DNA from: Reclinomonas americana ATCC 50394
Taxonomy: Eukaryota
Assembly: GCA_048213135.1 (NCBI GenBank)
Contig: PS015559.1
Location: 1-52,798 of the forward strand
Direction: 5' to 3'
Length of the DNA: 52,798 nucleotides
Below the pieces are notes generated by a model, which was not told the origin of the DNA, did no database searches, and saw nothing but the letters and a program-made list of their open reading frames with translations. This document shows, piece after piece, positions 4,307-52,798 of the stretch. How positions within the stretch are numbered: position 1 is the stretch's first letter; the number at the start of each line of letters is the position of its first letter. The position numbers and the translations under genes were made by a program.

Positions 4307-7283
4307 TTAGTCGAACTCGATGAGGACCTCATCGGCCTGCACCGTGGAGCCCGGCTTTGTGTGCACGGCCTTGACGGTGGCGTCACGCTCGCAGCGCAAC
4401 ACATTGCGCATCTTCATGGCCTCCACAACCGCCATCTCTTGGCCCATCACAACCTGCTCGGCGAGGCGATGAGTGAATGGAAACGAGCAGAGCGCAATCA
4501 CGCAGAGACCGGCAAACGGACCTTGTCACCCGGTTGCACGTTGATGGACACCACAGAGCCGGGCATGGGCGACAGCAGCGACTTGGAGGTGTCGACCTTC
4601 TTGGGGATCGGCATGTAGCGGCGCAGCTCGTGCTCCGCAGGTGAGTCGACACGCACCGTGAACTGCATCGGCAGAGAGAGCAGTGAGCGACAACACACGT
4701 GAGGAGGAAAAAGCAGAAGTATGTGTGTGCACGCAACGTGCATGCCAAAGTATTGCAAAACAGCGCCCTGCGAGCCGCGGTTGTGCACCTGCACGACCAG
4801 CTCCTCCTCGCCGTCGAGAATGGCATCGAAAATGGCGCTGCCGGGGACCCAGTCGGTGTTGAGGGTCACCTGCTGATCGCCGACACGGACATTGAAGGCG
4901 CCGTTCTCGTCCTGCTCCACCGTCACCGCCTCCGCACTATCGTGCTCAGCGTGCGACACCTGGCCCTTGACGACGGTCACCATGTAGGAGCCGCGGTTGG
5001 CATCAGCATCCACCAGCGGGATCATGTGCTCCACCACGCTGTTGTTGAGCTGGTGCGTCTCGTACTGCAGCACAATGAGAAAACCGAGGCACAAATCAGT
5101 GATCGCCACCAGCTGGAGGACCCAAAAAACCACCCCGAGTACCTCCATGAGAGCAGCGGCCGCCTTCAGAATGATGCGCTGGCGCGGAATCAACACGTGA
5201 CCACCAAAGCCCTTCGGGTACTCCTCCGGGATGAACTTGGTGGTGATGGCACCGCTCAAGTAGCGCGGGTTCTCCAGCACGGCGCGCAAGAACGCGACGT
5301 TGTGGTTCACACCCTGCGATGCGACAGCACGATGTGAGCCCACCGCGCACTGCCAACGAGATCAACACATGACAGGCACACGTGCCTTGATCTGGTAGCT
5401 GTCGAGAGCCTTGCGCATGAGGGCAATCGACTGCTCGCGATTCTCTCCGTAGGTGATGAGCTTGCAGATCAGCGGATCGTAGAAAATGCTAATCTCAGAG
5501 CCCTCGAGAATGCCCGAGTCGCAGCGCACATTTGGGTTGCCCGACAGCGGCTCCTTGTAAGTGGTCAGACGGCCAATCGACGGCAGGAAGTTGCGGAACG
5601 GATCCTGCGGCGCAAGACAAGTTCAGAAAACACCAGGCCATGAAGGGAGACGGGGGGACAGCACAGACCTCGGCGTACACACGAGACTCGGTGGCCCAGC
5701 CGCGAATGCGAATATCCTCCTGGCGCACCGACAGCGGGTTGCCAGAGGCCGCCAGAATCATCTGCTCCACAAGATCCAGTCCGGTGATGAACTCAGTAAT
5801 GGGGTGCTCCACCTGCAGGCGGGTGTTCATCTCCAGGAAGTAGAAGTTGCGGTTCTTGTCGACGAGCATCTCCACAGTGCCGGCTGAGGTGTAGCCGACG
5901 GCCTTGCCGAGTCGCACCGCTCTGCCATCGTCCACACACACACGATTAACACGACGTCACACAAGAGAGAAAGAGGAATAGTAAAAAACGAGCGCAACTG
6001 CTCTCCCATGGCCTTGCGCGTGGCAGGATCCAGGAAGGTCGACGGCGCCTCCTCAATGACCTTTTGGTTGCGGCGCTGAATGGAGCACTCACGCTCCGGC
6101 AGGTACAGCTGTGAGGGAGAAAAAGGGGCATTGAGAACANNNNNNNNNNNNNNNNNNNNNNNNNNNNNNNNNNNNNNNNNNNNNNNNNNNNNNNNNNNNN
6201 NNNNNNNNNNNNNNNNNNNNNNNNNNNNNNNNNNNNNNNNNNNNNNNNNNNNNNNNNNNNNNNNNNNNNNNNNNNNNNNNNNNNNNNNNNNNNNNNNNNN
6301 NNNNNNNNNNNNNNNNNNNNNNNNNNNNNNNNNNNNNNNNNNNNNNNNNNNNNNNNNNNNNNNNNNNNNNNNNNNNNNNNNNNNNNNNNNNNNNNNNNNN
6401 NNNNNNNNNNNNNNNNNNNNNNNNNNNNNNNNNNNNNNNNNNNNNNNNNNNNNNNNNNNNNNNNNNNNNNNNNNNNNNNNNNNNNNNNNNNNNNNNNNNN
6501 NNNNNNNNNNNNNNNNNNNNNNNNNNNNNNNNNNNNNNNNNNNNNNNNNNNNNNNNNNNNNNNNNNNNNNNNNNNNNNNNNNNNNNNNNNNNNNNNNNNN
6601 NNNNNNNNNNNNNNNNNNNNNNNNNNNNNNNNNNNNNNNNNNNNNNNNNNNNNNNNNNNNNNNNNNNGACACAGACTCAAGAGAGACTCAGGGCAGAGAG
6701 GAGGGCATACCCTTCTCCAAACGCTCCACAAAGTGCGAGTTCTCCGACAGGAATCCGTAGCCGGGATGCACAGCCTCCGCGCCCGTGTCTCGCATGGCCT
6801 TGATGATGGCATCTTGGTTGAGGTAGCTCAAGCGAGTCGGCGGCGGTCCCTGCGTGACAAGAGGAGAGTGAGAGACAAGAGACATGATGATGAGAGAGAG
6901 GGGGGTGAGAGGAGAGGAGAGGAGAACGCAACAATGCACACGGCCTCGTCGGCCAATCGCACATGCTTGGCAAACTCATCGGCCTCCGAGTAGACAGCGA
7001 CCGTGCGAATGCCCATGCGACGCGCAGTGCGGAACACACGGCATGCAATCTCTCCGCGGTTGGCCACCAAGATCTTCTTGAACGTCTGCGCAGTGAGAGA
7101 GAAGGAGAGAGAGAAGGAGAAGAGTGAGCGGCCATTGCACCAACAAGACACAAGAGCACACACACGTGCCTTGACAGGGTAGTTGCACGGAGGCTCGACT
7201 TTGACAGGCGGCACACTCGACGTCGACATGCAGCGTGTCGTGGCCAGCGCCGCACGCGCCACGCGTTGCAGCAGCAACACCAT
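4307..7283 (-). CDS. PCCA: Propionyl-CoA carboxylase alpha subunit, mitochondrial (biotin carboxylase plus biotinyl domain); multi-exon, interrupted by gap 6140-6667
   Basis: Motifs [64 protein letters not shown] and the biotin site VVEAMKMRN. The Arg/Ala/Ser-rich N-terminus [20 protein letters not shown] looks like a transit peptide. Confidence 0.93.
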
Positions 7284-8125
7284 TGCGAAAGATGCGATTT
7301 GCGCGACGTCCTGCTGCATCAATTGCGTTTTTTTGTGTTGATTGGTGACGTTGCATGGATGATCATGCAACAGCTGTTTAACACGGGCGTTAGATTATAA
7401 ACAGCACAAACACGTGATCGCACATGGCGGATCAGTTAAACTCGATCTCTATTCTCGAACTTCGTGATGCAGCTTGGCCAATTGCAACTCATTGGTGCTC
7501 AAGGGTCCCTACACCGCTGTAAATGGCAGACCAGTGCCCTCCTTGCTGTGCTCAAGGGTCCCTACGTATACACCGCTGATGGATATGAACTACACACAGA
7601 GGGATTGAATTATACACGTAAAACACAATGGCTCGTGCGAAGAGAGCGAGCGCTCGAGGGTCATGTTTGTCGTCGCTCTCAGAGAAGGGGGGAGGGGGAG
7701 GTGGAAAAGGAAACNNNNNNNNNNNNNNNNNNNNNNNNNNNNNNNNNNNNNNNNNNNNNNNNNNNNNNNNNNNNNNNNNNNNNNNNNNNNNNNNNNNNNN
7801 NNNNNNNNNNNNNNNNNNNNNNNNNNNNNNNNNNNNNNNNNNNNNNNNNNNNNNNNNNNNNNNNNNNNNNNNNNNNNNNNNNNNNNNNNNNNNNNNNNNN
7901 NNNNNNNNNNNNNNNNNNNNNNNNNNNNNNNNNNNNNNNNNNNNNNNNNNNNNNNNNNNNNNNNNNNNNNNNNNNNNNNNNNNNNNNNNNNNNNNNNNNN
8001 NNNNNNNNNNNNNNNNNNNNNNNNNNNNNNNNNNNNNNNNNNNNNNNNNNNNNNNNNNNNNNNNNNNNNNNNNNNNNNNNNNNNNNNNNNNNNNNNNNNN
8101 NNNNNNNNNNNNNNNNNNNNNNNNN

Positions 8126-8990
8126 ACCCACCAGCACACGCGGCTGCCGGTCGCCGCCGTCACAGCTGCGGCGTCCGTGCCCGACACCGCGTTTTGGCTC
8201 GTCGGCTGGCGGCCAGGCCAGCTCGTCCTCGGAGGAGGAGGCCGTCGAGGCACCGGCGTAGGCGTCGGCAATGGCCTGCGTGGTGCGCATCTTGTACCGA
8301 ATGTAACCCGACACGTGGGTGGCGCCGTAGCGATCGAGAATGGCCGGATCGGTCCACTCCTTGCCGGTGATGCGCTTGCGGCATGTCTTGGTGCCGCACG
8401 TGCAGTCGAACGGCTCGCAGTTGATCACAAACGTCGCGTAATCGATGGTCAGTTGCTCGCCACGACGAATGGCGCGGCAGGCCACCGTGTTCAGTCCGTC
8501 CAACCACACATTCGGCTCGCACGAGTGATTAATCGGCTTCCAGTCCATGGGATTGGGCGACCACATGGCCCACACATCGTCGTTCAGTGGATACGCATAT
8601 GCGCGGAACCACTGCTGGTACAGTGGGCCCCACTCCTCGTCCACACGACGCTTGGAGACGAGGTAGTGCGGAGTGGTTTCCTGGCACGCAACGAGTATTA
8701 GAGAGAGAAGAGGAGGGATGCCAAAAGCGCTGAGCATACACACCTCCAGGTGATCGACCACCTCGCCAACATCAATGTCGCGCTTGGCGTACAGGCCGAA
8801 ACCCGATTGCCGCGAATGCCGCACTTCGACCACGTCGCGACGCATCTTTTCGGCGTGCCGGCGCATAGCCGAGCCGATAATGGCGGCCAGGAACGACTCG
8901 TGGCTCGCCTCCGGATCGCGATCCAGAATGAAATCAGCGCTGCCAAACAGACCCGGTGGATACTGCAACGCATCCGCGTCAGTCGCGGCG

Positions 8991-9021
<31 letters not shown>

Positions 9022-10570
9022 TACAATTACCCTGCCACCGACGCAACAAAGACTCCACACTGCGGGTTGATCTCCAAAAAGTACAACTCCCCATCGTGCT
9101 GGCTCAGACGCACGTCCAGGCGACCGTAGCCACGGCCGTTCAGACCCGAGAAGACCACCTTGGCCATTTCGCGCAGACGACGATCGATGCCTGGCTCCGT
9201 CACCGGGAACCACTCAATGCCCTCGTAGTCCACAAACTTGAGCTCGAAGTGCTTGAACGTTTCGCCCTCCGGGAAGCGGCACTCCACCTTGTTGACGGGG
9301 AAAGAAAAAGGGTCAGCCTTGGGAGCGGGAAACAAGCAGAGAGAGAGAGAAGGAGAGATACCGGCTGATACGTGATTGGATTGCTCTTGTCTTCGGCACT
9401 CTCGCTGACCAGCACCGTGAATTCGCGCCCGTCAATGAATTCCTCAATCAGAGTGCCACCAAAAGCATCGATAAACCGCAGCGCCTCGGCACGTAGTGAG
9501 TCCGCGTCCGTGACACGCGAATTCCTCGTCATGCCCACCGAATTGTAGCCACACGGGTGCTTGCACAGTAGTGGGTAACGCAGATCGGTGCCGGTCGCCG
9601 CCAGCTGCACCACCTCTTCCACGGCCTGTACAGAGCAATGAGGTGTGCGCACACAAGTACCATGACACTGAAAAAAAGTAGACACAAGTACCGCCGCATC
9701 GTAGCAAAAGCGCCATGCCGGCGTCCGCAGACCATGTGACACGACGACACGCTTCATGGCCTCACGTGACGGATCGTAAAAGTTGGTGTCGGCACCCGTG
9801 AACGGCACATTCAGGCGCTCGAGTGCATCGACCACCTCGGCACCAGCACGGTCCTCGTCCCATGCGCCGTCGCACAAGTTGAGGTAGCAGTCGTACTGCT
9901 TCTTGGCGATCTGCGTGATTTCCCTCACCGCCGACGCCTTTTTCACTGCGTACGTGTCTGCGCACAAAAAGAGAGAGAGAGGAAGGGTCAGTCGTGTGTG
10001 GTGCTGGTGGTGGCAGCGCGGTATGTGACGCAGTCGGGAATGTGGAATCGCATATCAGAGATCAAGTGCGAGATCATGCAGCGGCGGCAGAGGAGAGAGC
10101 GAACGAGCGAGTGAAGCGCAAGAGGGAACAGCAAAAGAGAGAGAGAGAGCGCGCGTGGATCGCAGCAACAGCAGTGGACACACGCCGGCGCGCGCGCACA
10201 CAGCAAAAAACCGGGCAGCAGCGACACAGCAGCCATCCACTTCGCATCTCTCTCTCTCTCCGCTCATCCTCGCACTCGCACTCCCTCCCTCGCTCTCTCG
10301 TAATCACACCGCTGTCATCCCTTTTACCTTTCATCACATGTCGCTCGCACAACGCACATACACACAGACAGACAGACAGTGAGGCAGCACAGACGACTCA
10401 CCAACAGTGTGCCCCATTCGCTCGAGCCAAATCTCGGGTTTGACATCTACGCAACGGTCAGTGAGAGACAGAAGAGACAGAGGAGAGAGACAGAGAGACG
10501 AACCGGGATCGAGTCCATTGCAAGGCGACACAGAGCCTTCATAAGACGACACCAGCACAGCGATTCGCAT
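8126..10570 (-). CDS. D-Ala-D-Ala-ligase-like ATP-grasp domain fused to SET and post-SET domains; 3' end runs into gap 7715-8125
   Basis: The N-terminus reads MRIAVLVSSY...YLNLCDGAWDEDRAG...LNVPFTGAD. ATP-grasp motifs: LIEEFIDGREFTV and GYGRLDVR...LYFLEINPQCG. SET motifs: GFGLYAKRDI, INHSCEPN, GEQLTIDY. Post-SET motif: FDCTCGTKTCR. Confidence 0.88.
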
Positions 10571-11004: not shown

Positions 11005-13082
11005 ATGTGGTCGATCTTCACTGGTCGCTTCTGGGCCACGTGGCGCAAGCGCTTCTGTGAGCCAGAGACGCGTCGCGAGTATTGGGTTCCGTAACAACAC
11101 CCACACAAGAGAGAGAGTGAGAGAGTGTGATGCTCATCTCCTTTGTTGTTGTTGCTTGTGTGTGCTTATGTGTGCAGGCGATTGAGGGCCACCGCATCAT
11201 CTTCATTTTGCTCTATGTCGCCGGCAACATGGCTGTGTTGCGTTTCTCTCACACACACGCGCACTTGCACACACGCACGCACTTTCTTCTTCACTCTGTT
11301 CTCTCTCTCTCTTTCACACACACACTCTCTCACACACACAACATGCATGCATCACTGTGAGAGCGTCGTTACCGTCCGCATCATGATTGCGCGGACAATA
11401 AGATTCTCCTCTCACTCTCTCTCTCTCTGTGCGTATGTCTCACAGTGGCGCAGTGTGGTTGTACTGTTGCGTCCGTTTGTGTGAACGCTCGTGCGCGAAC
11501 ATGCAGTTGAGCCAACTCACGCTTGTGAATGTATGTTTTGTGTATGGTGTGCTTTTGGTGTGCTTTTGGTGTACTTTTGGTACGTGTTTGGTATGCTTCT
11601 CGTGTGTTTTGTTGTGTTTGTGCAGATTACTGGGCTGCCCCTCCGTGGATCAAGGTTGCTCGGTGAGTGCGACTCGGTGCTTTTTGTTGTTGCTGTTGTT
11701 GCTTCTGTGCTCACGTGTTGTGCAGTTTCTTTGGAGGCATGTTAAATCTCAACTGCGCGGCGATTCTGTTCGGTGTCATGCGAACCTTCTTGTCATGGTA
11801 TATTCCCCCATGCATTTTTCTATTCCGTGTGTGTTTTGTGTGTGTGACTGATGTGTGTGCGCGCAGGCTACGCACGATTCGCATTTCGTCGTTTATTGAC
11901 CTGGATGTGAATATCGAGTTCCACATCAAGGTCGCGTACTGGATCGCCATTTGTGGCGCGGCTCACGGGTAGCGTGCTGTGTCTTTCTCTCCTTCCGTTT
12001 CCCCCCTGCTAATTACGGTCTCTCCTTCTTGTCGATGCAGCATGGCGCACTATTTTAACTATGTTGCGTGACGGTGGCCTCCATCCCAGTCGCACACACA
12101 CTCGCGACTGACTTTTGTTGTTGCTGATTGTTTTTTATGCAGTCGTGCTGCTCGCCGCTGTACAACCCCGCAAGTTCAGCTGTTGTGCTCCGCTGTCGTT
12201 CACGACCTGACTCGACTCACTCACTGTTTTTTCTGTTGTGCCGTCAGGTCCGATTTACAGCCCCGCCGATGCGTCGTGGACCAATCGTTTTGGTGTGACG
12301 GGCGAACTGCTGGTGATTGTCATGGTGCCAATGTACGCCGCCGCGCACTCGGGATACCGCCAGACGCACAATTTCAGCGTCTTCTGGGTCGTGCATCACC
12401 TGTTTATCGCCTTTTATGTGCTGCTGTTGGTGCATGGTTCGTGCTGATTGAGAAGTATCTGTGTGTGTCTCTCTCCATTCGCGTTGCTCACTTGTGCCCT
12501 CCGCTCGCACAGGCCGCAACTTTTGGCACTGGTTCATTGGCCCCGGCACCCTGTACGTCATTGAACGCATCCTGCGCATCTTCCGCGGTCACGTCAAGAC
12601 GTCAGTGGTGGAGGTTCGACTGTGTTAGTTATTCCACCTGTTGTTTCTCGTCGACTGATCTAAGTATCCTACCGCAGGTCCGCTATCTCCCCTCCAATGT
12701 GATCCACGTCATTCTGCAAAAGGAGGGCTTCAAGTCCAAGTCTGGCCAGTACGCCTTTATCAACTGCAACGCCATCAGCTACCACGAGTGGCATCCGTTT
12801 ACCATCACCTCGTGCCCCGACGATCAGTACCTCGAGTTCCACATTCGTTGCGTCGGTGACTGGACCCGAGCGCTTGCGGAGCACATGAACCCCGATCGCA
12901 AGCAGGTCGTCCACTTTACGCCAGTTCCGTTGCTCCATCACTCTACTCGCTGTGTGCGTCGCTCGTGTCAGCTCACATTGATGGGCGTCAGGAAAAATCG
13001 CCGCTCATGATGATTGATGGACCGTTTGGAGCGCCGGCCGAGCATTTCTGGGCGTATGACTACCTCGTGTTGATTGGTGCCG
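11005..13082 (+). CDS. NADPH oxidase catalytic subunit, NOX2/NoxA type with no N-terminal EF hands; C-terminal NADPH-binding part lost in gap 13149-13562
   Basis: Spliced translation begins MWSIF...RREYW|AIEGHRIIFILLYVAGN. Heme His pairs lie in FHIKVAYWIAICGAAHG and HHLFIAFYVLLLVHG. FAD/NADPH motifs: GQYAFINC, EWHPFTITS, HIRCVGDWT, IDGPFGAP, VLIGAG. Confidence 0.92.
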
Positions 13083-13562: not shown

Positions 13563-17781
<4,219 letters not shown>

Positions 17782-24900: not shown

Positions 24901-25181
24901 TTGTGGCGACATTCGACCGTGCGGCGAATCGCGTGACAGCGTACCGCGACGGCGTGAATGTGGGCACTGGTGCGATCGGCAACACCGGCACCGAGTGGCT
25001 GGACAGCACCAACAACTATTCGACTTTTATCGGTGCCGATGGTCGTGGTGTGTACAGCGCCTCGGCCGATGTGGACGACTTTGCGGTGTGGGCTCGGCCG
25101 CTGACGGCGGCTGAGGTGTCGTGCCTGTACACTCAGGGCGCGGCGGGTCGATCTCTCGAGGTCGCCGCTGGCTTGGTTTAA
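18965..25181 (+). CDS. Secreted metzincin (matrixin/M10-like) metalloprotease with a PPC-like domain, Cys-rich EGF-like repeats and three LamG-like jellyroll domains; apparent 1-bp frameshift near 23021
   Basis: Signal-like segment LIVVAVALVLLLCTASG. Zinc motif HEHGHGLG|LGH across an intron and Met-turn TKLME|P. PPC-like GSIDVPADVDYFKF...PYYIRV. Three LamG-like units carrying FTVxAWxRT, SNKxWxSGxNTGW, DGQWHxxVxTxDR and DVDDFAVWxRPL. Stop TAA at 25179-25181. Confidence 0.88.
22243..23261 (+). repeat. Coding tandem repeat with a 162-bp unit (54-aa Cys-rich EGF-like module)
   Basis: The unit start GA(C/T)TGCAGCCAG recurs at 22471, 22633 and 22795 and 22957 (162-bp spacing) and at 23115 (158 bp). 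Unit sequence: CSQPTSCSVVTCPTNSYCNPTTFACTACNCVAANTASCSSTGQCVCKTGFGGAD. Confidence 0.95.
23426..25160 (+). repeat. Near-identical internal duplication of an EGF+LamG module (about 750 bp, two copies, offset 982 bp)
   Basis: GCCCGAGCGCAGGCACCGGCTTGCGTGCATACCTCAAGTTCGACGGC occurs at 23481 and 24463. The two translations differ at only scattered residues. Confidence 0.95.
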
Positions 25182-25274: not shown

Positions 25275-25946
25275 TCAGAGAGCGGAGACGTTGAACGCTT
25301 GCACCATGGCGTGGATGCCGGCGGCAAACGTCACGGACAAGCCCATGACATACGAGATGCTCCGCCACGGTTGCAACTGCAGCGCAAAAGCGAACGAGTG
25401 TGCAAAACGCGCGACAGTGAAGATGATGTAGTAGGCCACGTGCGCCGAAGCCGATGAGTCGGCGTTGCTGGTGATGTACAGCAGGATTGCGATGAGGAGG
25501 AAGATGGGGATGTTCTCCAGGTCGTTCCGATGCATCGCTTGAGCGCGGTCCACCTTTGACGAGATGCTGGCAGCGGGAGCCGCTCCACTGCCCACGCGAC
25601 CGTACGCGGTCGCCGGGTTCGAGTCGCCTCCACCGGGAACGAGAGCCTCGTTGCGAGTGGCCGTCGATGCATTGCGTGCGTCCTTCGCCAATGCATTCCT
25701 GGTGAGCAGGCTGCAGAGGAGTGCAAGGCAACGAAAGAGCGCAGACTCACCTCCGGTGCCGCTGGTCGTCCCTCAGAGCGACGAGCGACGCCCGTGTAGA
25801 TGCCGACGCCAAACATCTGCACACGAACTTTGTCAGGCAGACAGGGAGGCGCGTCACATGCACGCTGCGAGGCACAGTACCTTTACGAAGAGCAAGAAGG
25901 TGCACACGGTGAGCGTGCGGATGTCGAGTTGGATGTCGAATGTCAT
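25275..25946 (-). CDS. MAPEG family membrane protein (MGST1/PTGES-like), copy 1
   Basis: Spliced translation MTFDIQLDIRTLTVCTFLLFVK|MFGVGIYTG...VDRAQAMHRNDLENIPIFL...FTVARFAHSFAFALQLQPWRS, with four hydrophobic helices. Confidence 0.9.
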
Positions 25947-26899: not shown

Positions 26900-26981
26900 C
26901 GTCGTCGCTCGCTGCTTCCACAAAGTGTTTGTTGATTGATTGACCTTCTAATGTTTGTTGTTCATTTTTGTCACATTCCTC

Positions 26982-37153: not shown

Positions 37154-38327
37154 ATGGCCTCCTCGTCATCCTCGCCACCCTCGTCCCACGCAATGCCCGC
37201 AGCCGCGCACCGCATGCAGTGGCGAGTGCGCTCATCTGCACCACTGCGTCTGCGCACTCCTCCTGCTTCTGTGCCTGCTTCTGCTTCAGCTGCTGCACCA
37301 GTGGAAGAAAAGGAGTTGTCGTCGCCGGCGACAGTGCTGCCCATGCGTGACTCACCGCGACTGTCCTCGCTCACTCCGTCGTCGTCGGTGGGCTCGTCAT
37401 TGTCGTCGTATGGCATGCGAGGTGAGGCTTTTAAGTTTCCGAACAAATGCTAGACTGCTCTTCCTTGGCCTCGTTGTCTCGCTCTTTCTGTGCATATGAC
37501 GCTCCCTCCACCTCATTACTCACTCTTTCCTTGCCTTTTTTGTGTCTTTTTAAAAAGGATCTGCTTCGAGCGGGTCTCTGGCCGGTCGTGATCGCGAGGT
37601 GCTGACGGGTGTGGTGCCGGGGCAAATGTTTGGTGCCGAGGTCGCCGACGACTGTGTTGGCGACTGTGCGCTCATTGTGTTGCATGAGTTGCGTATCAAA
37701 CCAGCGTGCGGCACCTTTTCCTAGCAGGCCTTTAATTGTTTCTTCGTTGTCGTGGCAGTGCTCGTGGTTCCGACGATCATGTGGCGTCGTTGGCGCTGTT
37801 TTTCCACACCGCCTTGCAGTGTCGAGTGGTGGTGCCGGATCTGTTTCGTGGCGAGGTGCTGACAGATGCGCAGGTGCGTGTGTTTGCCTTTACCGCGGCT
37901 GTGCACGAGCTCACCTCGCGCGCGTGCACCACAGATCGCTCTTCGTATGCGCAACTTTGACTGGGAGGCGGCCATGGACGATGTGTATGCGGTGATTCAT
38001 GGCGTGCGGTGCCAGCGTGTTGCCATTGTCGGATTTGGGCTCGGCGGAGCGCTGGCTGTGTTGGCGGCCAGCCGGCCAGTGCCGGTGCTCAGTCCGTCGT
38101 CGTCGTTTCACGAGGCAGCAGCGCCTACCGCGACGACGATTGTGGCGTGTGCCACCATTGGCGGTATTCCACCGCGTAGCATGTGGAGTGCCACTGAGTT
38201 GGCGGTCGATGGCATCCAGGGGCACTTTGGCAACGACGACGAGACCACCGATGTGCGCGCGGCGGACGAATTCGAGACCCTGCTGGCCACCTCGCCGGTG
38301 CCCGACTGCACAGTGTGGCGGTACCCT
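37154..38327 (+). CDS. Dienelactone-hydrolase-family alpha/beta hydrolase region lacking the nucleophile Cys; possibly the N-terminal part of the next CDS
   Basis: Spliced translation ALIVLH|DARGSDDHVASLA...VVVPDLFRGE|...FDWEAAMDDV...RVAIVGFGLGGALA...IQGHFGNDD...VWRYP, which then enters a 20-N gap. Confidence 0.78.
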
Positions 38328-38387: not shown

Positions 38388-40530
38388 CAATCCAGTGCTG
38401 CGATCCGGGTGGGGCTTCAAGGAGGGCGAGAAATGGACAGCGGTTGCGTCATCGTCATCGTCGTCGTCATCGTCGTCACTCGCTTGCTCGTCTCACTCTG
38501 ATGATGGTTTAGTGGAGGAGACGCTACTTTACCCTCCGTCTCACCGACCTGCGGTACGCTGCCAAGGCGGAGAGTGGCGACACGCGCGGCTGCATTCCCT
38601 CGTCATCCGTCCGCGCAGTCACGTGTGAAGACAGTCGGAAAGGGCGGCCGTGGGCCGTGTGCATACACACTGAGCGGCTCGACAAAGGTGAGTTGGAAAG
38701 AGATTGCTGGGGGTCTCACGCGAGCTGACGTGCTGCATGCAGGTCCACGGGAGTACTGGTTGACCTTTGAGTCGGAGAGCGAGTGGCGCGGGTGGCTGGT
38801 GGCGCTGACCGAGTGGAGAGTGACCTCGTCACAGTTCGAATACGGCAAGGGGGAGTCGCCGCTGGGAACCCTGGTGGCGTTTGGTGCGTGTGCCTCCCTT
38901 GCCCGTTTCCGTGCGCTTCGTGCGACTGTGACGACTCATTTTTTCGTTTGCATGCAGGCGCTGCCGGCTCCGGAGTGTCGACGTTGTGCAGTCACGCCAA
39001 GATGCTGTGGGGCGGTGGTCTGCTACCGGTGGAGGCGGAGCTGTTGGTCGAACTGTTTCGTGACTCGCGATTCTGCTCTCTCACCTCTCCTCCCGCCCTC
39101 TTCTCACTCCCCGTCTTGGCGCTGTGCAGAATTCGGAGCACAGCGACGTGCGTAGTCGAAGTGATGGCTTGCGTTCAAGAAGCTGTACTCACCCTCTCTG
39201 CCTGCAGGCATGGCATCGCGAGAATGCTGGAGGCGCATGAAGAGCTGCAGCTCTCCTTTGACAACCCCGCCAATGAGGTGTGTGTTTGTGCGCGTGTGCT
39301 CCTGACTGCGCGTCTCTCATGCTCAGCCACCCGTCGATGCCTCCAGGCGCAAGCACGACAAGTGCTGCAGGCGGTGTACGAGAATGAGCCGCTCTCGACG
39401 GAGCTGGCTACGGGTATCGAGCAACTCTTTGCCGACAGCTGTTGCGTGTCGAGTGGCTGTCAAAGAGCGATGCTTGTTTCCCCTCTCATATGTCTGTTAC
39501 AGCCATGCGGCTGGTGCGCGCACAACGAGACGAGTATGGCATCGACGATGGCACTCTGTAGTTGCGCCACCTCTGCCGTGCTCGTGCTACCCCGCTCTTC
39601 CCGCGCCAACGTTGTCTTCTCGATCTGCAGCTTCGTACAACAGGCGGCCAAGATTGCGGATCCACTGTTTGCCCCGACCTCCGCAGACATGGTGAGATGT
39701 TACCGCTGCACCGGCCAGACCACGTTGTTGAGCGGGAGATCGCCGTTGAGGTTGGTGAAGCGAGGCCAAATATTGTGAGGTACTGCGACTTACTGTGCTT
39801 GTGTGCAGATTACTCGAGAGCGGAGGGAGTCGGATGGAGCACGATTCATGGACAAAGTTGTCGAGCACGCTGGCCCGAGCAGACACTGTTATTCTGTTTC
39901 TCGTGGCCATGAGCGAGTTGCGTGCACTGTGCCACAAAAACAGTCAGGGTGTGTGCGATGCATGCTGACTGGCGTGAGCACAGGTTCGATCGACCTTCGT
40001 ACATGGACGACAGCATGCGACTCTTCGACGAGTGGGTGAACCAGGATCTCTCGTTTGCACGGTTTGTTCTCGCCACACACCTGACTTGTCGCGCCAAAGT
40101 GACTCACACACTGGCTGCCGCAGGCCGGTTCTACTGCTGCTAGTCAAATACGACAGGTTTCGTGAGCGTCTCGAGCAGGAGCCGGAGGCATTTGGCCGAG
40201 CGTTTCCCGAATTCAGACGTGCGTCTGCCTGTGCAATCCTCGTTGACTTTATTCTTTGCGTTCTACGGCTGACCTGTGAGCAGCACTGGCGGATGGCACG
40301 GATGCGACACAACAAGCCTGTCAGTACCTGGAGAACCAGTTCATGCATCTGAACAAGAATCCGGAGCGAGAGGTCCACGTGCGAATCATTTCGGCGACCA
40401 GTACGCCTCACGTCAGGTGCGTTGAGCCACCCTCTCTCTGGCGACCCACAAGTTTCTCATTTTTTTGCTGTCTGCACACAGAGACGCCATGAACGACGCC
40501 GTGGCCATGCTGAGAAGAGCTCAAAAGTAG
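38388..40530 (+). CDS. PH domain fused to a degenerate heterotrimeric G-protein alpha domain
   Basis: PH domain: LRSGWGFKEGEKWTA|WRRRYFTL...RGCIP...REYWLTFESESEWRGWLVAL. G-alpha domain: LVAFG|AAGSGVSTL, YFVQQAAKIADPLFAPTSADMVR, LLESGGSRMEHDSW, VILFLVAMSE|FD, MDDSMRLFDEWVN, PVLLLLVKYD, IISATS. Stop TAG at 40528-40530. Confidence 0.82.
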
Positions 40531-41573: not shown

Positions 41574-42038
41574 ATGGACGACATTGGCATGAACAGCGAG
41601 TACCAGGTATGCGCGCCCGGCCGTTCTTATGCCGCCCTGTTTCCTTACACGCTGTGCAGGCGGGCGACATGGCCGGCTCGTATGCAGGTTTGTCTCTCCT
41701 GCTCTCCTCCACGCATGTTGTTTCTGTTCTTATGCGAGTTTGTGTGGTGTGGCAGCGGAGGGTGGACAGCCCTTCCAGGTGCCGAGCGGTGTGGGCCAGC
41801 AGTTGCGTGTGTGTGTTTGTTGTTGGCGTGAGATTGCCCGCGCAACACACGCACTCACGCTCTTTGTCTCTCCCTCGTGCTCGCTTGCTGTTGTTGTGCC
41901 ACACCAGGTACGCCGAGGGCTTTGTCTCCGGCTACGAGAGCGTTGCGTCTGGAGTGCGTGTGTTCGTGTTTTGTCTTGTTTTCTTTCTCACGTCATGTTC
42001 ATGATACGCAGGCCAACGAGTTCCAGAACTCCACTTGA
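41574..42038 (+). CDS. Five-exon microprotein (55-59 aa), function unknown
   Basis: Four GT-AG introns with mutually consistent phases give MDDIGMNSEYQ|AGDMAGSYAA|EGGQPFQVPSGVGQQ|YAEGFVSGYES(VASG)|ANEFQNST*. Confidence 0.7.
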
Positions 42039-44506: not shown

Positions 44507-47043
44507 CTAATTCGACTGGTACGTCGGCGGCATGGGAGGCACAGGCCGGCCCGACATTTTGGAAATGTACTGGTGGCAGTCGTCCAGCTGGCGAGCGCGC
44601 TCCTCGTCGGACCAAGCCAACAAGTGCGCCATGCGATCGGCCACACGGGGCGCGATCATGTGCGCCAGGTGGTCGTTGAAGAAGGGCTGCACATGACAAG
44701 GATAACAAACTCAGTCACCATTGGGAAAAAAAGGGGGAGCAGCGCGAAGCCACTAACCACGCGCAGTCGATTGACCACGACGTCCACCAGTGTGCGAGCG
44801 TACTCGTGCTCCACCGTAAAGTCGATTTCGCACACCAGGAACGGGTACGATGGATGCAGTCGCTTGTACACCACTGGCTGACGCCACTTGCGCGCAGACC
44901 CCGGTCGTTTCTGCCTTCGGTGCAGTTCCTCCATGCTGTGCTCCACAAACGAGCGGTCGTAGCGCAGCACCTGAGTCGACAAATCCCCGTACTTGTTGGT
45001 CAAGTAGAACGAGACTGCGCCAGAGTTCTGTCAGCAAGGAAAAAGCAAAGTGATTTCTTTCTTCTCTGGCACGCACGGTCTCGGTCTACTGCATGTCGCA
45101 CGCGGAGGATTTTGGCGAAATAGCGAGGATTGTCGCGAGGGAATGTGTGGCCGCCGAGCAGCACCAGATCCTGCGTCTTGCCGTCGGCGTGTGGCGGCTT
45201 GAGGCCGCACACCTCAATGGCCTTGCCGACGACCTCGGCCGCCATCGTGCGATACGTGGTCCACTTGCCACCCTGGATGCTCACCAGGCCGGCGCTCGAG
45301 ACGGTGATTAGATGCTCACGCGACACGGCCGCCGTGCCCGAGCCGGCATCCTGCGAAACATTCGGGTCCTGTGCGGAGAGGGAGAGACAGTGAGAAAGGG
45401 CCGTCGCACAAGTCTTTCATGAAAAAGAGAACTGACCACTGCCAGTGGCCGAATGCCGGCCCAGGCCGCCGACACCATTTCCCGTTTGAACTCGACATTG
45501 AAGTACTGACTGAGATACTCGAGGAGGTACTGAATGTCCTCCTCGGAAGGCGTGGGGTTCGCCTCTACTCGGGCTGGATTATCGGTGGTGCCAGCCAGCA
45601 ACGCACCGTGCCACGGAAGCATGAACAGGACCTGTTATTGTGCGATTGGTGACACAGGATCGTGAGTTGGCGCGCTGCAAGAGGGAACGGAGAGAGTGGG
45701 CGACGCAACTCGGCCGTCCTTGGTCTTCGGGATGAGCAAGCCCACCGAGGGCAGCTGCGCAAGAAAAGGGATGAGCATTCAAACTCATTCAGAGAGTCAC
45801 GATGGTGCGTGCGCGCAACATCATACGGGTTCTCCGTCGACTCAAAGAACAGTGTGTCGAACACCAGGTGCACGCCCGACGACGCCATGGTGGAGGTCTT
45901 GGCCTGGGGATTGTCGAGCTGCTTGACCTGATCGCTCATGGCGCCGGTGCAGTTGACGACCGACTTGGCCGCCACATTGAACTCCTCGCCCGTCAGCTGA
46001 TCACGCACACGCGCACCACACACACGACCGTTCTCGTCGTGCAGAATCTGCACCGCCTTCATGTGGTTGACCACTGTGGCGCCCAGCGAGGCCGCTGTGA
46101 CGGCCAGCGTCACGTTCATTCGAGCATCGTCAAAGCTGCCGTCGTAGTACAGCACGCCACCACACAGCCCCTCGGCACGAATCATGGGATTCTTGCGCAG
46201 CACCTTGGATCGCGACACGAAACGCGACGGACGCAGTCGGTGCGTGCCAGAGATCCAGTCGTACATCTGGCAAAGGAAGGTGAGGAAAGATGTAGAGAGA
46301 GATGCAGAGTGGCACGGTGACTCTGCTCACTTTCAAGCCAAACCACACGTACGGCACCTCCCACCACGAGTAGAGCGGGGTGAGAATAGCCAGCTGGTGC
46401 GACAGGTGCGGTGCGATCTTGAAAAAGGTGGAGCGCTCATGCAGTGCCTCCATCACCAGGTTGAACTGCGCACGATCCAGCTGCTTGATGGCCTTTTCCA
46501 GGTAGCGCACTCCGCCACTGAGCGACAACAATCCGTCAAGGACCGACTTCATCGATGATGATTGTGAGATGAAGAAGCGCAACTGCATCATCTTGGTGCT
46601 GCGACTGCTGGTGCCCGACGCAAAGTCATCCATCTCAATGAGCGCCACCGACAGACCACGTGCAGTGGCATCCACGGCCGCACCAGCACCCACACAGCCT
46701 GATTGCGCGCATGTGAGAGCATGCAAAGAGAAAGTGAAAGAGACACGCACACACCAGCGCCAATGATGAGCATGTCGAACTGGCGTCTGTGCAAACGATG
46801 GATCTGCTCGAGTCTCCGCGGCACAGTCTTGGTCACATCCACGGGCGCCACTTGACCATTTCCACCACCACCACCATTGTTGTTGATTGCGGTCTCTGGT
46901 GGTGGTGGTGGTGGCGCCGAGTTGTCGGGTGCGCTCAGCAGCACAGCGCCTGTCGCGAGGCCGCCGATGCCCAGCAGTGATGCAGCGAGGCGGATGCCAG
47001 TGAGCGAGCCGGCTTGCAGCCGCCGGCTTGCCCACTGCCACAT
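44507..47043 (-). CDS. GPD2: Mitochondrial FAD-dependent glycerol-3-phosphate dehydrogenase (no C-terminal EF hands)
   Basis: FDMLIIGAG|CVGAG, DDFASGTSSRSTKMM|HGGVRYLE, YYDGSFDDARMN, SSGVHL, IPKTKDGR|VLFMLPW, AWAGIRPL, GGKWTTYRTMA, EYARTLVDVVVNRLR. Confidence 0.94.
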
Positions 47044-47589: not shown

Positions 47590-50204
47590 ATGGAGCTGCT
47601 GAGCGCCAACGCCATCAAAAACCTCTCGGAAAAGATCCCCGAGAAGCGCAAGCAGGGCGCGCTCGAGGTCGATCAACTCGTCAGACAGGTGACACTCTGC
47701 CGTGTTCCTCTGTCTCTCTCTCTCTATCTGTGTGTGCGCACCCCACTCACTGCGCTCCTTGTCCCCATCATCCACTCAGATCCGACAACGAAACGAGCAA
47801 CAACGACGCATTCCCGAGCTGACCTCGGGACTCACCAAAGAGTTTGTCAACTCGGTCCAACCAAACTCGCGCAAGGGCGGTCTGGTCGCGCTGGCTGCTG
47901 TCGCTGTGGCACTCTTGCAGGTGTGCACGGACAGGAAGAGAGCAAGGGGGCAGGAGAGAGAGCGAACGAGCATTGCCAAACATGGCCACTCTTCTGTGAC
48001 CACTCACGCTCACCCCGTGTGCGTGTGTGTGCAGGATGTGCACGAGTTCCTGGATACACTGGTGCCGCCGATTTTGCAGTGCCTGGGCGATCAGGACAGC
48101 AAAGTGCGATTTCATGCATCCGAGGCACTGTACAATGTGGCCAAGGTCGCTCGTGGAAGCATGCTGCGGTACTTTGCCGAGATCTTTGATGGCCTCTGCA
48201 GAGTTGAGTCCTCTCTCGCTTTTCCTCTCGTTTCCGTCGCTCACCACCTTTCCCCAACGCCGCAGCTGAGCGCCGATCCCGATGCACAAGTGAAATCCGG
48301 GTGTGAGCTGCTGGATCGCCTCATCAAGGACATTGTGGCGGAGAGCGAAAAGTTTGACACGCGCACCTTTGTGCAGCTGCTGCGCGATCGCATCATGGCC
48401 ACGAATGCGTTTGTGCGCCAGTTTCTCGTGTCGTGGATCTCGGTGCTGAATTCGATCCCCGACACGTCGCTGGTGCCGTACCTGCCCGAGTTCCTCGACG
48501 GTCTGTTCCGCATGCTCAGCGACCCACACGAGGAGATCCGCACGCAAGCCGACACCACTCTCGGCGAATTCCTGCGGGAGATGAAGCAGGAGACCACCAA
48601 TTATCCGGCCCTGGTCGACATTGTGATTGTGCACTCGGGCAGCAAGGACGACTTCACGTGCCTCACCGCCCTCAACTGGGCGCACGAATTCCTCGCCGAG
48701 GCCGGTCAGGTGCTGCTGCCCCACGCGGCCGCCGTGTTGGGTGCCGTGTTGCCGTGCATCTCACACAGGCAAGAGAGTTGCGTTCACTTGTTCTGTTTGT
48801 CTCCCTGGGGATCGCGGGCTCACGCATCGCGCGATGCAGATATCCGGCAGATTGCGTCGCGCATCAACATTAGCATTCAGACGCTGGTGAACGGCGCCTC
48901 GAGTTCCTTTGATCTGGCCGCCATTCTGCAAGTGGTGGCCGTCGAACTGGTGAAGCACTTTGTGCCAACACGCGTGGCCGCCCTCAACTGGATCATCATG
49001 CTGTTCCGCAAGGATCCCGATGCCACGCTGGCGCACATTGATGAGCTGTTCCCGCTGCTGCTAAAGACGCTGTCGGATCGGTCAGACAAGGTCATTTCGC
49101 TGGACTTGGAGGTGCTGGCCCGCTTCTCGGCCAACGAGGATATCTTCCAGCGCTTCATGACCTCGCTGCTGGAGCTGTTCTCCACCGACCAGGAGCTGCT
49201 GAACAAGGCCGGCTTCATCATTCGCACGCTGAGCATGATGCTCTCACCACCTTCGATCTACTCGGCGCTGGCACAGAATTTGGAGCGAGAAAAGGTGCGC
49301 TTTTTTGTTGTGTGCGGGTGCATGGCCCGCCTACTCAAATCTCATGTGCACATGTGGCAGGACATTGAGTTTGCCAGCACCATGGTGCAAACACTGAACA
49401 TGATTCTGCTGACCGCACAAGAGCTGAGTCAACTGCGCAACGCCATTCGACGAGCACCAGTGGATGAGGAGGTGAGAGTGTGATCAAGCAGTGTGGATGG
49501 CATCGAGTTGCTTACAAGAACGGCGCCTGCAGGGTCGCAAGCTGTTTACCACATTGTACCCGTCGTGGTGCAACAACCCAGTGGCCACGCTCAGCCTCTG
49601 CCTCCTGTCGCAGTCGTACGAGCACGCCAGCAATCTCATTTCACGGTTTGCCGAGTGCGAAATCACCGTCAGTTTCTTGGTACAAGTCGACAAGCTGGTG
49701 CAGTTGCTGGAGTCGCCGATTTTCTCCTGTGCGTCCTTACTCCCGTCGTACTGCTTGTTTCCGTCCGTCCTCACTCTCCTGTGCAGATTTGAGACTGCAG
49801 CTGCTCGAGCCGGCCAAGTGTCCACATTTGCTCAAGACCCTGTACGGCATCCTCATGTTGCTGCCGCAGAGCTCCGCCTACGACACGCTGAAGAACCGCC
49901 TGAAGAGTGTCTCCACCCTCTCTATTCTACAAATGCACACCGTGGCGACACCACCGTTGCGTCTGCTGCGGTGTGCGCGCTGGGAGAGATGGAGGAGGGC
50001 ATTGATACTCACTGCGTGTGCGGTTATCCCAGTAGCTCGGCGTCGACTGCGAGTGCCTCCGCACACGGCTCGGCCATTGATTTTGACGAACTCATGCGAT
50101 CATTCGAGGCCACGCAGACGCGACACCAGGAGACCAGGCAACAATTACTGCAGCAGGCGGCAGCCAGTGGTGCACACGTGGTGTCCCTGGAGATGCCCAA
50201 GTGA
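47590..50204 (+). CDS. VAC14: VAC14, HEAT-repeat scaffold of the Fab1/PIKfyve-Fig4 complex
   Basis: [109 protein letters not shown]. Confidence 0.96.
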
Positions 50205-50418: not shown

Positions 50419-51809
50419 TTATCGTCTGTGATAATTGGAGGCGAGAGAAGTCAGAGAGACGCGCGGAGAAAAGAAAGAGATTGTCTCGTGCGCACCCTTC
50501 CTTCCTTGTTGCCATTCTTGCGCAAATCAATTGCCGACGACAGCATCAGCCAGCCCCAGATAATGGCCCTGCAGGAGGAGAGGAGTCAGATCTCGAGAAG
50601 CACCAAAAGATGATCACGGATCAGCGCGTACCAGAACCAGCCTGTGTATTTCGGTGATTAGTGTCACAAAAAAGACAGACAAACTGCAAGACAGAATCCT
50701 TTTGCGTACCAACGATGAAGAATAATGTGCTGCCAGCCTGGAGTGCAAACACCTGCCAGCATCGACATGTGTCAAACAAGAGAGCAACCACAAGTTCCGC
50801 GGAGAAACAGGGGCGCAACGAAAAAGTTGATCCAAAACACCGCACAGCCGTTGGGCCAGCTCTTGACCACGGCCCCGTCGCCTCGTGGAGTCCTGCTCCC
50901 ATGGTGGTGGTTGACAATGGTCACTCTCCACAGCGATGCAAAAGAAGAAGAAGCAGCAGCAGCAGCAGCAGAGCAGCAAAACGCAACGGGCAGCAGCACT
51001 GATCACAGCCGCCGACAATGGCGCCGATCAGAGTGCCGAGTGCTCCGGGAATGATGTTGAGGATGAAGCAGGCAATCTGCGCATCAACTCGACATCAGCG
51101 AGAGATACACACACACACTCACACATGAGAGGCATGAAGAGGGACAGCGACGACGCAACGCCCCAGCCCAGTCGGAGACGCGGAATAGCCAATTTGAAGC
51201 GCTCGAGGCAGCCTGGAGTCTCCGCTGTCGTCTGTGTCAACACGACGACTGCCGGGGGCGAGTGAATGAGAAGAAGGCAGGGAGCGGGAATCACGAGAAA
51301 CACACACACACCAGTCGGTTGATACCCCGGAGGGAACTGTGCGCCCTGGAGAGTGTGCGCAGTGAGAGAGAGTGGCACACACACGCACGCACAAGACGAC
51401 AGTGACCCACCGCTCCAGGATAGTCGCCATACTGTGTGATACACACGAGTCAGACTCACAAACAGAGAGGGAGAGAGTTTGTGTGTGCAATGGGACACAA
51501 TCACACACACCTGTGCGGGATACATGGCTCCGGGCGGTTGCATTCCCGCCGGTTGAGGCATGTGCTGCATAGGCACAGAGGCGCCAGGCGGAGGCAAGCC
51601 ACCACCATGTACCTGAGAGAGGGAGAGAGGGAGTGAGAGTGAGTTGTAGACAATGAGGGCGCGTGCTTTCCGACAACTGACCTGTGAGCCACCAACTGCG
51701 CCCTCTTGATTCGGCTGCCGCAGCGTATGTGGAGAGAGAGTGAGCAGAGTGACGGGTGATGGTCGGTGCAAAGCAACGCAACAGAAACTTGATCTGTGCG
51801 CACGCCCAT
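50419..51809 (-). CDS. SPEC3/Stum family membrane protein with a Pro/Gln-rich N-terminus (start may be 51863)
   Basis: Spliced translation FKLAIPRLRLGWG|IACFILNIIPGALGTLIGA...CAVFWINFF|VFALQAGSTLFFIV|GWF|WAIIWGWLML matches the Stum pattern AIP...CxxLNxxxPGxGT...GWxxSIxWG. Confidence 0.82.
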
Positions 51810-52015
51810 CTGAGTGTTATGAAGAGAAGCCCGACGCGAGCAATCAGCGAATTCACGTTTCATCCCTCACAAGTGTGCATTTGTTTCTTAAAAAGGGGGA
51901 GAGGGGAGAAGAAAGAGAGAGAGAGGGAGGAGAGGCACTGCTGTTTCCTTGCTGGACCATTCGGCAGAGCACAAAAAAGAAGACCAAAAACAGCAGAGAG
52001 AGTGGGGAAACAATC

Positions 52016-52798
52016 TCAGATTGCCGAGCGGCCGTAGATGCCCTTGGAGGCCAGCAGGTCCTCCACATCGTCGTTGTTCTGCTTTCTCGGCCTTCGTGGG
52101 CAGATGATCAGGTAGAGCAACGTCAGGCCCATAAAGGCGACCAAAATGTACAGGTACACCTGCGAGGAGCGTGTGAGAAGACGAGTCGCTTGCAATCGGC
52201 GCGCGGCCACACACACAGAAACGCAACATTCCACGCTGGTCCAATGCCCTTCAGATGCTTCACATAGGTCTGGAACAGGGCTGTACAACACAATGGTGAG
52301 TGAGTGCAAAGGAAACTGTGGTGGTGGCTGCGGGAGGGGGAAGCGGCACGCACAGTTGACAGCGGTGCCATTGGTGTAGCCGGAGAAGGTGGTGGCCGTG
52401 AACTGGGTGACCACAATCGCAACCAGCATGACCATGTCGGTGTTGAAGAGGAACGAGCTCATCAGCGTCTTGCCAGGCCTGTGCAAGTGCTTAATGAGCC
52501 AAAAGAAACTGGAGGGGGGAGGAAACGAGGAGTACGCAACTCCATCGGGTGAATGCGGAAGATGAACGGAATCTGCAGGCCGAAGCGCACGCAGCCCTTA
52601 ATGGCCGCCCACAGCAGGTAGTACGCAAAGATGCCGTAGAAGATGATGGCGAAGAGCGCAAAGGTCTTGTCGAGATCGATGAGCAGCGTGTTGATGAAGG
52701 GCGACACGTTGGTGAAGTCGTGCAGAATGATTTGCAGAATCCACGCAATGGACAGGCAGACGCTGCACACGCGAGGGAAAATGGTCAGTACACACGCA
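52016..52798 (-). CDS. LIMR / LMBR1-like membrane protein, 3' part
   Basis: FYGIFAYYLLWAAIKGCVRFG...FRIHPME|PGKTLMSSFLFN...VTQFTATTFSGYT. Confidence 0.85.

Follow-up and report, generated by a model that had tools for sequence, protein, structure and literature searches.

In mammals, a group of 5′ splice sites of the GUUAAGU type, rare in humans, is recognized in a shifted (+1) register (Roca and Krainer, 2009, cited in PMC4856993), and a further register with a bulge at +2/+3 has been described as well (Roca et al., 2012, cited in PMC4856993). According to PMC4856993, validated noncanonical registers of every kind jointly account for about 1.5% of the 5′ splice sites in humans. A published two-class picture of donors, AG//GUNNN versus NN//GURAG, describes a trade-off between the exon and intron sides of the site (PMC11732430); the text of that article never uses ‘shifted’ or ‘bulge’, and ‘register’ is used twice in passing. 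Here we analyze a class of 5′ splice site with the consensus GTTGCGT in a 52,798-nucleotide (nt) stretch of nuclear DNA from the intron-rich eukaryote Reclinomonas americana ATCC 50394 (contig PS015559.1). The whole stretch is referred to as the window, and about 48 kb of it is readable sequence.

The sites in the window resemble those of Roca and Krainer in that a U stands at +3, straight after GU, and pushes the consensus tract one base further in, in that the cut appears to be made at the GU with U1 small nuclear RNA (snRNA) thought to pair one base off, and in that shifted pairing is predicted to be more stable than canonical pairing. They differ in frequency, being rare in humans but roughly a third of the introns seen here, and in the tract itself, which is GCGY rather than AAGU and has a near-invariant C at +5 that standard U1 does not explain. 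With the bulged +2/+3 register they share the extra U straight after GU; however, a bulge predicts G at the last exon position (−1), where G is depleted here. As in the two-class picture, an exon G at −1 is traded against a strong intron side, but the published classes share one register, whereas in the window the intron-side class comes in two forms, one in register and one displaced by a base. The kind of site is already known from shifted and bulged registers, and what differs here is its scale, the GCGY tract and the rigidity of that tract. A literature search by motif and splicing terms, with the supplements of genome papers outside its reach, returned only primers and unrelated sequences and no account of this donor class.

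A sequence-only reading of the window had listed 29 introns that start with the pattern GT-N-(G/T)(C/A)G(T/C), and had proposed that they form a distinct donor class, the local consensus moved by one base. All 29 sites carry GT at the listed base and strand within this pattern. Twenty-six of them read GTTGCG(T/C), the exceptions being GTAGCGT (11969), GTTTCGT (24180) and GTTGAGT (48203). Position by position, T occupies +3, G occupies +4 and C occupies +5 in 28 sites each, G occupies +6 in all 29, and +7 is T in 24 and C in five. The class is the local consensus GTGCGT/GTGAGN displaced by one base after GT, with T at +3, and the extra base is T-specific; the proposal of a distinct class is upheld. 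The last exon base is A in 13 sites, T in eight, C in five and G in three, so that our recount agrees with the 26 non-G exon ends reported earlier.

Word counts on both strands were compared with an order-3 Markov model, with Poisson p values. GTTGCGT occurs 39 times where 11.7 are expected (3.3-fold, p = 2.5e-10), and it is the top over-represented 7-mer of the window aside from simple repeats of the CT, GT and GGA types. Because this count lies far above Markov expectation, the motif is not a composition effect. It might still be argued that GTTGCG is a common word of GC-rich DNA and that copies near exon ends were picked: the raw GTTGCG count of 78 is only 1.4 times expectation, GTTGCGC is not enriched (22 versus 20.0), and 12 copies sit antisense within genes whose orientation is known. 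Against this stand the excess of GTTGCGT itself, the selection of GTTGCG sites by alignment and parsing that are blind to the donor (below), and a local coding-context test that GTTGCG[CT] passes at 15 of 61 copies, compared with 6 of 68 for GTGCGT, 5 of 81 for GT[ACG]GCG[CT], 12 of 400 for random GT and none of 17 for GTTGCG[AG]. We regard chance and selection as largely refuted and very improbable. The 17 copies of GTTGCG[AG] behave unlike GTTGCG[CT], and several of them arise from a repeated LamG coding word on the opposite strand. In the matrixin-LamG gene (19425-25181) this repeated word, read antisense, explains three GTTGCGGAAC copies.

Evidence that the sites act as donors comes from homology. 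We used our own protein-to-genome spliced aligner, which takes any GT or GC as a donor and any AG as an acceptor, with no splice-site weights; introns of a biotin carboxylase gene were placed by Pfam coordinates together with enumeration of every frame-compatible GT/GC..AG pair. The carboxylase gene was placed in this way because a protein search with its PCC_BT exon gave no match. Ten of the 29 sites are backed as starts of GT-AG introns by donor-blind spliced alignment, Pfam coordinates or conserved motifs (4737, 5998, 6932, 20049, 45709, 46583, 48203, 48777, 52227 and 52540), and at each of them removal of the intron restores frame and homology, as judged from the alignments, from Pfam matches that continue across the junction or from a motif made whole. 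These introns are given below, with a slash marking the exon-intron boundary, the last exon base in lower case, and homologue counts giving the share of aligned homologues that select the intron.

4663..4737, minus strand: shifted intron c/GTTGCGT...CAG, 75 nt, carboxylase gene; PCC_BT ends no more than one residue from the donor; also called in a donor-blind parse
5922..5998, minus strand: shifted intron a/GTTGCGC, 77 nt, phase 2, carboxylase gene; CPSase_L_D2 109-144 continues as 144-209
6850..6932, minus strand: shifted intron t/GTTGCGT, 83 nt, phase 0, carboxylase gene; Biotin_carb_N 2-52 continues as 52-97; also called in a parse
20049..20132, plus strand: shifted intron g/GTTGCGT, 84 nt, matrixin-LamG gene; zinc motif restored
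45632..45709, minus strand: shifted intron a/GTTGCGT, 78 nt, phase 0, GPD2 gene; 4/4 homologues; also called in a parse
46518..46583, minus strand: shifted intron a/GTTGCGC, 66 nt, phase 2, GPD2 gene; 4/4 homologues
48203..48265, plus strand: shifted intron a/GTTGAGT, 63 nt, VAC14 gene; 12/12 homologues
48777..48839, plus strand: shifted intron a/GTTGCGT, 63 nt, VAC14 gene; 12/12 homologues
52160..52227, minus strand: shifted intron t/GTTGCGT, 68 nt, LMBR1-like gene; 8/10 homologues; also called in a parse
52479..52540, minus strand: shifted intron a/GTTGCGT, 62 nt, LMBR1-like gene; 9/10 homologues; also called in a parse

In the carboxylase gene, 6932-6850 is the only pair that yields the expected 28 residues (AVCI/GPPP), and 5998-5922 has the only GT donor that yields the expected 26 (MGEQ/AV); both are motifs that we take to be typical of biotin carboxylases. 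The exon after the 4737 intron reads FTVRV...PMPGSVV, a biotinyl domain. In the matrixin-LamG gene, removal of 20049-20132 turns HEHGHGLGLRD into HEHGHGLGLGH and completes the HExxHxxGxxH motif, whereas reading through the intron loses the third His. In GPD2 the sequence-only reading had argued for cleavage before the GT from the codon CA/T, which supplies the His of STKxxHGG, and this argument stands: at 46583, a donor selected with all four homologues, the spliced product reads STKMMH/GG.

The same junctions bear on an alternative in which the introns are of the GC-AG type and begin 3 nt downstream, with GTT kept in the exon as Val and GCGT starting the intron. The GC donor is always in phase, and a minority of blind alignments took it (one of ten homologues each at 52537 and 52224, one of four at 45816). 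However, it would add a residue within a conserved motif at 6932 (AVCI-V-GP), 5998 (MGEQ-L-AV), 46583 and 20049, and the 28-residue Pfam count at 6932 fits the GT donor only. We reject this alternative as scarcely credible. Taken on the sequence evidence, the listed class contains real donors, predicted to be cut before the GT.

Two further listed sites are compatible with this placement.

45755..45819, minus strand: probable shifted intron t/GTTGCGC, 65 nt, GPD2 gene; in phase, with good 3′ signals and a parse call; 0/4 homologues
8963..9047, minus strand: probable shifted intron t/GTTGCGT, 85 nt, ATP-grasp/SET gene; exon ends one residue past Dala_Dala_lig_C; 3′ end with CTGAC and CAG

A Pfam search of the exon downstream of the 9047 intron gave no match. 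The earlier observation holds: of the 29 listed introns ten are backed and these two are compatible, further ones are called by donor-blind parse, and six have no support beyond the motif.

For comparison we assembled a reference set of 24 well-placed introns, 10 shifted and 14 ordinary. Thirteen of the ordinary introns were placed by alignment or enumeration, and one, at 4521 (aag/GTCCGT), was read from the sequence and the Pfam frame. The ordinary donors are g/GTGTGT, a/GTGAGC, g/GTCAGT, c/GTGCGT, g/GTTAGT, g/GTGACA, g/GTGTGC, g/GTGCGC, g/GTGAGA, t/GTGCGT (twice), g/GTCTGT, g/GCACGT (GC-AG) and g/GTCCGT. One of them, at 44687-44757 on the minus strand, is an ordinary g/GTTAGT donor selected by 4/4 homologues, which has T at +3 without the displaced GCG tract. 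Since this donor is in the ordinary register, T at +3 alone is insufficient to define the shifted class.

Two other introns of these genes deserve mention. The intron at 5314-5385 on the minus strand, in the carboxylase gene, is probably of the GC-AG type (aag/GCACGT...CAG): its donor alone fits Biotin_carb_C 8-78 followed by 78-107, and the nearest GT donors insert AR or ARVP. The GPD2 intron at 45351-45436 on the minus strand has two CAG acceptors 18 nt apart, so that its last base is 45369 or 45351; homologues favour 45351 and the first donor-blind parse favours 45369. These may be alternative 3′ splice sites that add or remove six residues.

The shifted introns appear, from their sequences, to be ordinary short U2-type GT-AG spliceosomal introns. 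Their median length is 71.5 nt versus 66 nt for the ordinary introns. All 12 placed shifted introns end in CAG, and ordinary introns do likewise. Eleven of 12 shifted introns carry a predicted branch-like CT[CG]A[CT], as do 10 of 13 ordinary ones; in most cases it lies 17-45 nt before the end of the intron. U12-type introns, whose 5′ splice site is of the RTATCCTT type, were also considered, and no such site occurs among the 29. The introns open with an almost constant 7-mer and differ little in length (62-87 nt), which could instead suggest copies of a mobile, introner-like element that brings its own GTTGCGT end. However, all-against-all blastn of 25 introns found only simple-repeat matches of 8-16 nt, the 25 share neither a body nor terminal repeats, and ordinary introns have the same lengths; we consider mobile copies hardly conceivable and reject them.

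The abundance of the class was gauged from the reference set and from two gene parses that were blind to donor sequence beyond GT. Both parses used coding potential, and the second additionally used an acceptor and branch score and a length prior. Measured against the reference set, the first parse placed 5 of 14 introns exactly and got just the donor right for a sixth, and it reads through in-frame introns. The second found the donors of 10 of 13 ordinary and 7 of 10 shifted reference introns. The parses serve for ranking hexamers only. GTTGCG is the commonest donor hexamer in both, with 14 of 108 introns in the first (next hexamer, 5) and 30 of 309 in the second (next, 10). Of these 30, 16 were already listed and 14 are new, and 29 span 62-87 nt; 19 of the 29 listed donors were called by donor-blind parse. 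In the reference set, donors of the type GTTG[C/A]G make up 10 of 24 introns. The claim that this is a major class in the window is thus supported both by well-placed introns and by the hexamer ranking.

What distinguishes the class on the exon side is the base at −1. G occupies this position in 1 of 10 shifted and 10 of 14 ordinary reference donors (Fisher p = 0.0045), and among parsed introns in 2 of 30 shifted donors versus 16 of 39 GTG[ACT]G[TC] donors (p = 0.0018); the earlier observation that the class follows non-G exon ends is borne out by both sets. Over all 61 copies of GTTGCG[CT] the −1 base is A in 27, T in 17, C in 13 and G in 4. As background, GT dinucleotides of the window are preceded by A in 20% and by G in 21% of cases, which gives p = 1.3e-5 for the A excess and p = 1.5e-3 for the G deficit. 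At −2 the 14 ordinary donors have A in 8, T in 3, C in 3 and G in none, and a profile with A first and G last is common to shifted −1 and ordinary −2. Since −2 of the class does not resemble ordinary −3 (below), the likeness to a shifted register on the exon side is a partial mirror.

The sequence-only reading had interpreted the class as ‘compensating for lack of G at −1’. The link to non-G exon ends stands, but displacement of the entire recognition motif agrees better with the data, and we prefer it because the −1 position of the class is A-rich and G-poor like ordinary −2. Perfect ordinary GTGCGT also follows non-G bases (c, t, t), and weak intron sides (GTGTGT, GTGACA, GTCAGT) follow G.

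We consider it moderately likely that these are ordinary U2-type introns whose whole recognition motif lies one base off the cut, in the manner of the shifted U1 register of Roca and Krainer. The class consensus (A)/GTTGCG(T/C) amounts to the eight-letter footprint of AG/GTGCGT with one letter changed (AG-G-TGCGT versus AG-T-TGCGT), in which the only GT sits one base further upstream. As a first step, U1 snRNA and other exon-side readers would bind this footprint shifted by one base, so that G+1 would replace the exon G−1, A−1 would replace A−2, and U+3 would replace U+2. In a second step, U5, U6 and Prp8 would later cut at the sole GU. The proposed pairing would account for the T-only extra base and for the A-rich, G-poor −1 position. 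A one-base duplication of T in an ordinary GTGCGT intron would turn one class into the other with the reading frame untouched. We infer the U1 register and the genome-wide validity of the rule.

Pairing energies were calculated with ViennaRNA for a human-type U1 5′ end, which may not be that of the host (letters from Table 2 of PMC4856993). For gcA/GUUGCGUc they are −1.3 kcal/mol in the shifted register, +2.5 kcal/mol with a bulge at +3 and +2.6 kcal/mol in the canonical register. These values bear on the main alternative, a bulged reading, in which U1, and later U6, would pair normally while one U of +2/+3 is flipped out. The extra U adjoins U+2, so that the bulge could fall on either of them. 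Human sites that use this register have been described (Figure 1C legend, PMC4856993), and U6 could keep its pairing with G+6/U+7. However, a bulge predicts that G is favoured at −1, which is not the case (G in 4 of 61 copies, and in 1 of 10 reference donors versus 10 of 14 ordinary ones), and its energy is worse than that of the shifted duplex. A bulge is accordingly an improbable explanation of the class, and we return to the shifted register.

Several points weigh against that reading. The shifted duplex is itself weak at −1.3 kcal/mol, and GUUGAGU would pair better (−5.7 kcal/mol), yet C occupies +5 in 28 of 29 sites. It is not obviously possible for the U6 ACAGAGA box to pair in the shifted register, although diversity of U1 registers need not be followed by U6 (PMC4856993). 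At −2 the class has C in 22, G in 20, A in 9 and T in 10 of 61 copies, unlike the A/C-rich −3 of ordinary donors. Among the sites themselves, 45819 is ambiguous, as GTATGA at 45825, six bases upstream, is equally in phase, and six others (11237, 37688, 38443, 41802, 50987 and 49956) are without independent support; the donor-blind parses are noisy and over-predict. Finally, the readable sequence amounts to 48 kb, so that ‘genome-wide’ is an extrapolation.

Because C is kept at +5 in spite of weaker pairing, canonical U1 pairing alone does not explain the motif. Donors of the type non-G/GUGCGU are equally weak with a human-type U1 (−1.1 kcal/mol) and yet are used at 45076, 49729 and 52353. Something in the organism could therefore favour GCGU, whether the end of its U1, a variant of U1, U6 or a protein. 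The sequence-only reading had suggested that altered U1 or U6 snRNA, U1C/LUC7 or U6 m6A biology may lie behind the class. This leads to a further explanation, namely a lineage-specific adaptation, with a U1 5′ end, an additional U1 variant, or a changed U6 or associated protein that would directly match sites of the GCGU type. Under such an adaptation GUGCGU and GUUGCGU would be strong sites alike, and a dedicated or altered component would read the shifted class in place of a standard one that tolerates it. In its favour are the near-invariant C at +5 (28 of 29) where a human-type U1 prefers A (−5.7 versus −1.3 kcal/mol), the use of the three weak non-G/GUGCGU donors, and a frequency far above that of all validated noncanonical registers in humans (about 1.5%, PMC4856993). 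A scan of the window with Rfam at gathering thresholds found no family and no snRNA gene. Against adaptation, few known RNA sequences are as highly conserved as the U1 5′ end and the U6 ACAGAGA box. We judge this explanation unlikely as an alternative to the shifted register.

The listed sites that remain, called by parse or present as the motif, are as follows.

11466..11625, plus strand: listed donor t/GTTGCGT, acceptor uncertain; parse only
11969..12040, plus strand: listed donor g/GTAGCGT (A at +3); parse only
12063..12142, plus strand: listed donor t/GTTGCGT; parse
19821..19884, plus strand: listed donor a/GTTGCGT, 64 nt; parse; the exon from 19885 matches Matrixin 67-120 from its second residue onward
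20824..20893, plus strand: listed donor a/GTTGCGT, 70 nt; both parses
24180..24285, plus strand: listed donor a/GTTTCGT (variant); both parses
39441..39502, plus strand: listed donor t/GTTGCGT, 62 nt; parse; a cruder scan favours an acceptor at 39561
39561..39630, plus strand: listed donor a/GTTGCGC, 70 nt; parse only
39917..39983, plus strand: listed donor a/GTTGCGT, 67 nt; parse
50753..50819, minus strand: listed donor c/GTTGCGC, 67 nt; parse
51077..51159, minus strand: listed donor c/GTTGCGT, 83 nt; parse
11237..11243, plus strand: listed motif t/GTTGCGT; motif only
37688..37694, plus strand: listed motif a/GTTGCGT; motif only
38443..38449, plus strand: listed motif g/GTTGCGT; motif only
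41802..41808, plus strand: listed motif a/GTTGCGT; motif only
49956..49962, plus strand: listed motif c/GTTGCGT; 1/12 VAC14 homologues, in an unconserved C-terminal region
50981..50987, minus strand: listed motif c/GTTGCGT; motif only

A Pfam search of the exon upstream of the 19821 intron gave no match. The donor at 39561, for which the sequence-only reading had argued from a Tyr codon (TA/C, where a retained G would give TAG), is among those called by parse. At 39441-39630 on the plus strand two donors lie 120 nt apart: the parse puts a 58-nt exon (39503-39560) between them, and the cruder scan favours a single 121-nt intron with a TAG acceptor that ends on the G of the second donor.

The new candidates from the second parse are the following.

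21936..22003, plus strand: candidate a/GTTGCGT, 68 nt; parse
41942..42011, plus strand: candidate c/GTTGCGT, 70 nt; parse, with weak coding scores
360..422, minus strand: candidate a/GTTGCGT, 63 nt; parse
1366..1430, minus strand: candidate g/GTTGCGT, 65 nt; parse; 3′ end with CTCAC and CAG
3227..3313, minus strand: candidate t/GTTGCGT, 87 nt; parse
3447..3514, minus strand: candidate t/GTTGCGC, 68 nt; parse
3739..3803, minus strand: candidate a/GTTGCGC, 65 nt; parse
14760..14831, minus strand: candidate a/GTTGCGT, 72 nt; parse
15018..15089, minus strand: candidate t/GTTGCGT, 72 nt; parse
27068..27132, minus strand: candidate g/GTTGCGT, 65 nt; parse
28805..28868, minus strand: candidate a/GTTGCGC, 64 nt; parse
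35034..35101, minus strand: candidate a/GTTGCGC, 68 nt, upstream part of the MFAP1-like gene; parse
35174..35244, minus strand: candidate t/GTTGCGT, 71 nt, MFAP1-like gene; parse
51715..51782, minus strand: candidate t/GTTGCGT, 68 nt; parse, with weak coding scores

The window has a G+C content of 58% of called bases, with N making up 8.7% in 11 gaps, the smallest of 20 N, and its introns are 56-114 nt long. CT and GT microsatellites are very frequent, led by CTCTCTC (296 copies on both strands versus 66.7 expected) with GT/CA repeats next, and many of these microsatellites sit within introns. The recognizable genes are listed here.

About 4.3-7.4 kb, minus strand: propionyl-CoA-carboxylase-alpha-like biotin carboxylase gene (Pfam)
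8.1-9.4 kb, minus strand: ATP-grasp/SET gene (Pfam)
About 11-13 kb, plus strand: ferric-reductase/NOX-like gene
19.4-25.2 kb, plus strand: matrixin, LamG and EGF gene
44.3-47.3 kb, minus strand: mitochondrial-type glycerol-3-phosphate dehydrogenase (GPD2) gene
47.6-50.3 kb, plus strand: VAC14 gene
52.0-52.8 kb, minus strand: 3′ part of an LMBR1-like gene
Also recognizable in the window: two MAPEG genes, an MFAP1-like gene and an aquaporin

The top protein matches are 40-56% identical and are spread over stramenopiles, Balamuthia and Protostelium, that is, stramenopiles and amoebozoans and not green algae. The best spliced-alignment score for VAC14 is with Balamuthia, a cluster look-up of the top LMBR1 hits names Protostelium nocturnum, and a search of metagenomes with a GPD2 exon returned five loci (L001-L005) at 37-42% identity. 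In gap style, GC content, intron density and intron length the window resembles the Acanthamoeba castellanii Neff assembly as published, a Newbler assembly with 7.5% gaps and 6.2 introns per gene (PMC4053784), in one gene of which introns of 68-93 nt are reported (PMC10419851); however, among the hits listed in the two protein searches that show source names there was no Acanthamoeba protein. At 8126-9431 on the minus strand an ATP-grasp exon, like the C-terminal domain of D-Ala-D-Ala ligases, is followed across the 9047 intron by an open reading frame (ORF) with a SET domain, and the two may form an unusual fusion of ATP-grasp and SET methyltransferase, as read from the sequence. Besides a matrixin metalloprotease domain, the large gene at 19425-25181 on the plus strand encodes three or more LamG (Laminin_G_3) domains together with EGF repeats of the laminin/teneurin type. 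Two adjoining ORFs of the MAPEG family at 25278-26981 on the minus strand are apparently a tandem pair.

A bolder proposal, which we put forward tentatively, is that a lineage-specific change in the machinery has uncoupled recognition from the cut by one base in about a third of introns. One example would be complementarity to GCGU in the 5′ end of U1 or in a variant U1, with which A/GUUGCGU would form a long helix with a single mismatch. If this is true, natural introns of the shifted register would number in the tens of thousands in the genome, and R. americana would be the first organism with the shifted register as a main splicing mode. An organism in which about a third of the donors are displaced would serve as a large natural experiment on how U5, U6 and Prp8 fix the cut site once U1 has left, and on whether snRNAs can co-evolve with splice-site grammar. 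Shifted and bulged U1 registers also bear on the prediction of disease mutations and on splice-modifying drugs. For gene prediction the class is a warning, as donor models of six intron bases in one register score shifted sites poorly. For the evolution of introns, duplication of a T within the intron would be a simple route between donor types that keeps the reading frame.

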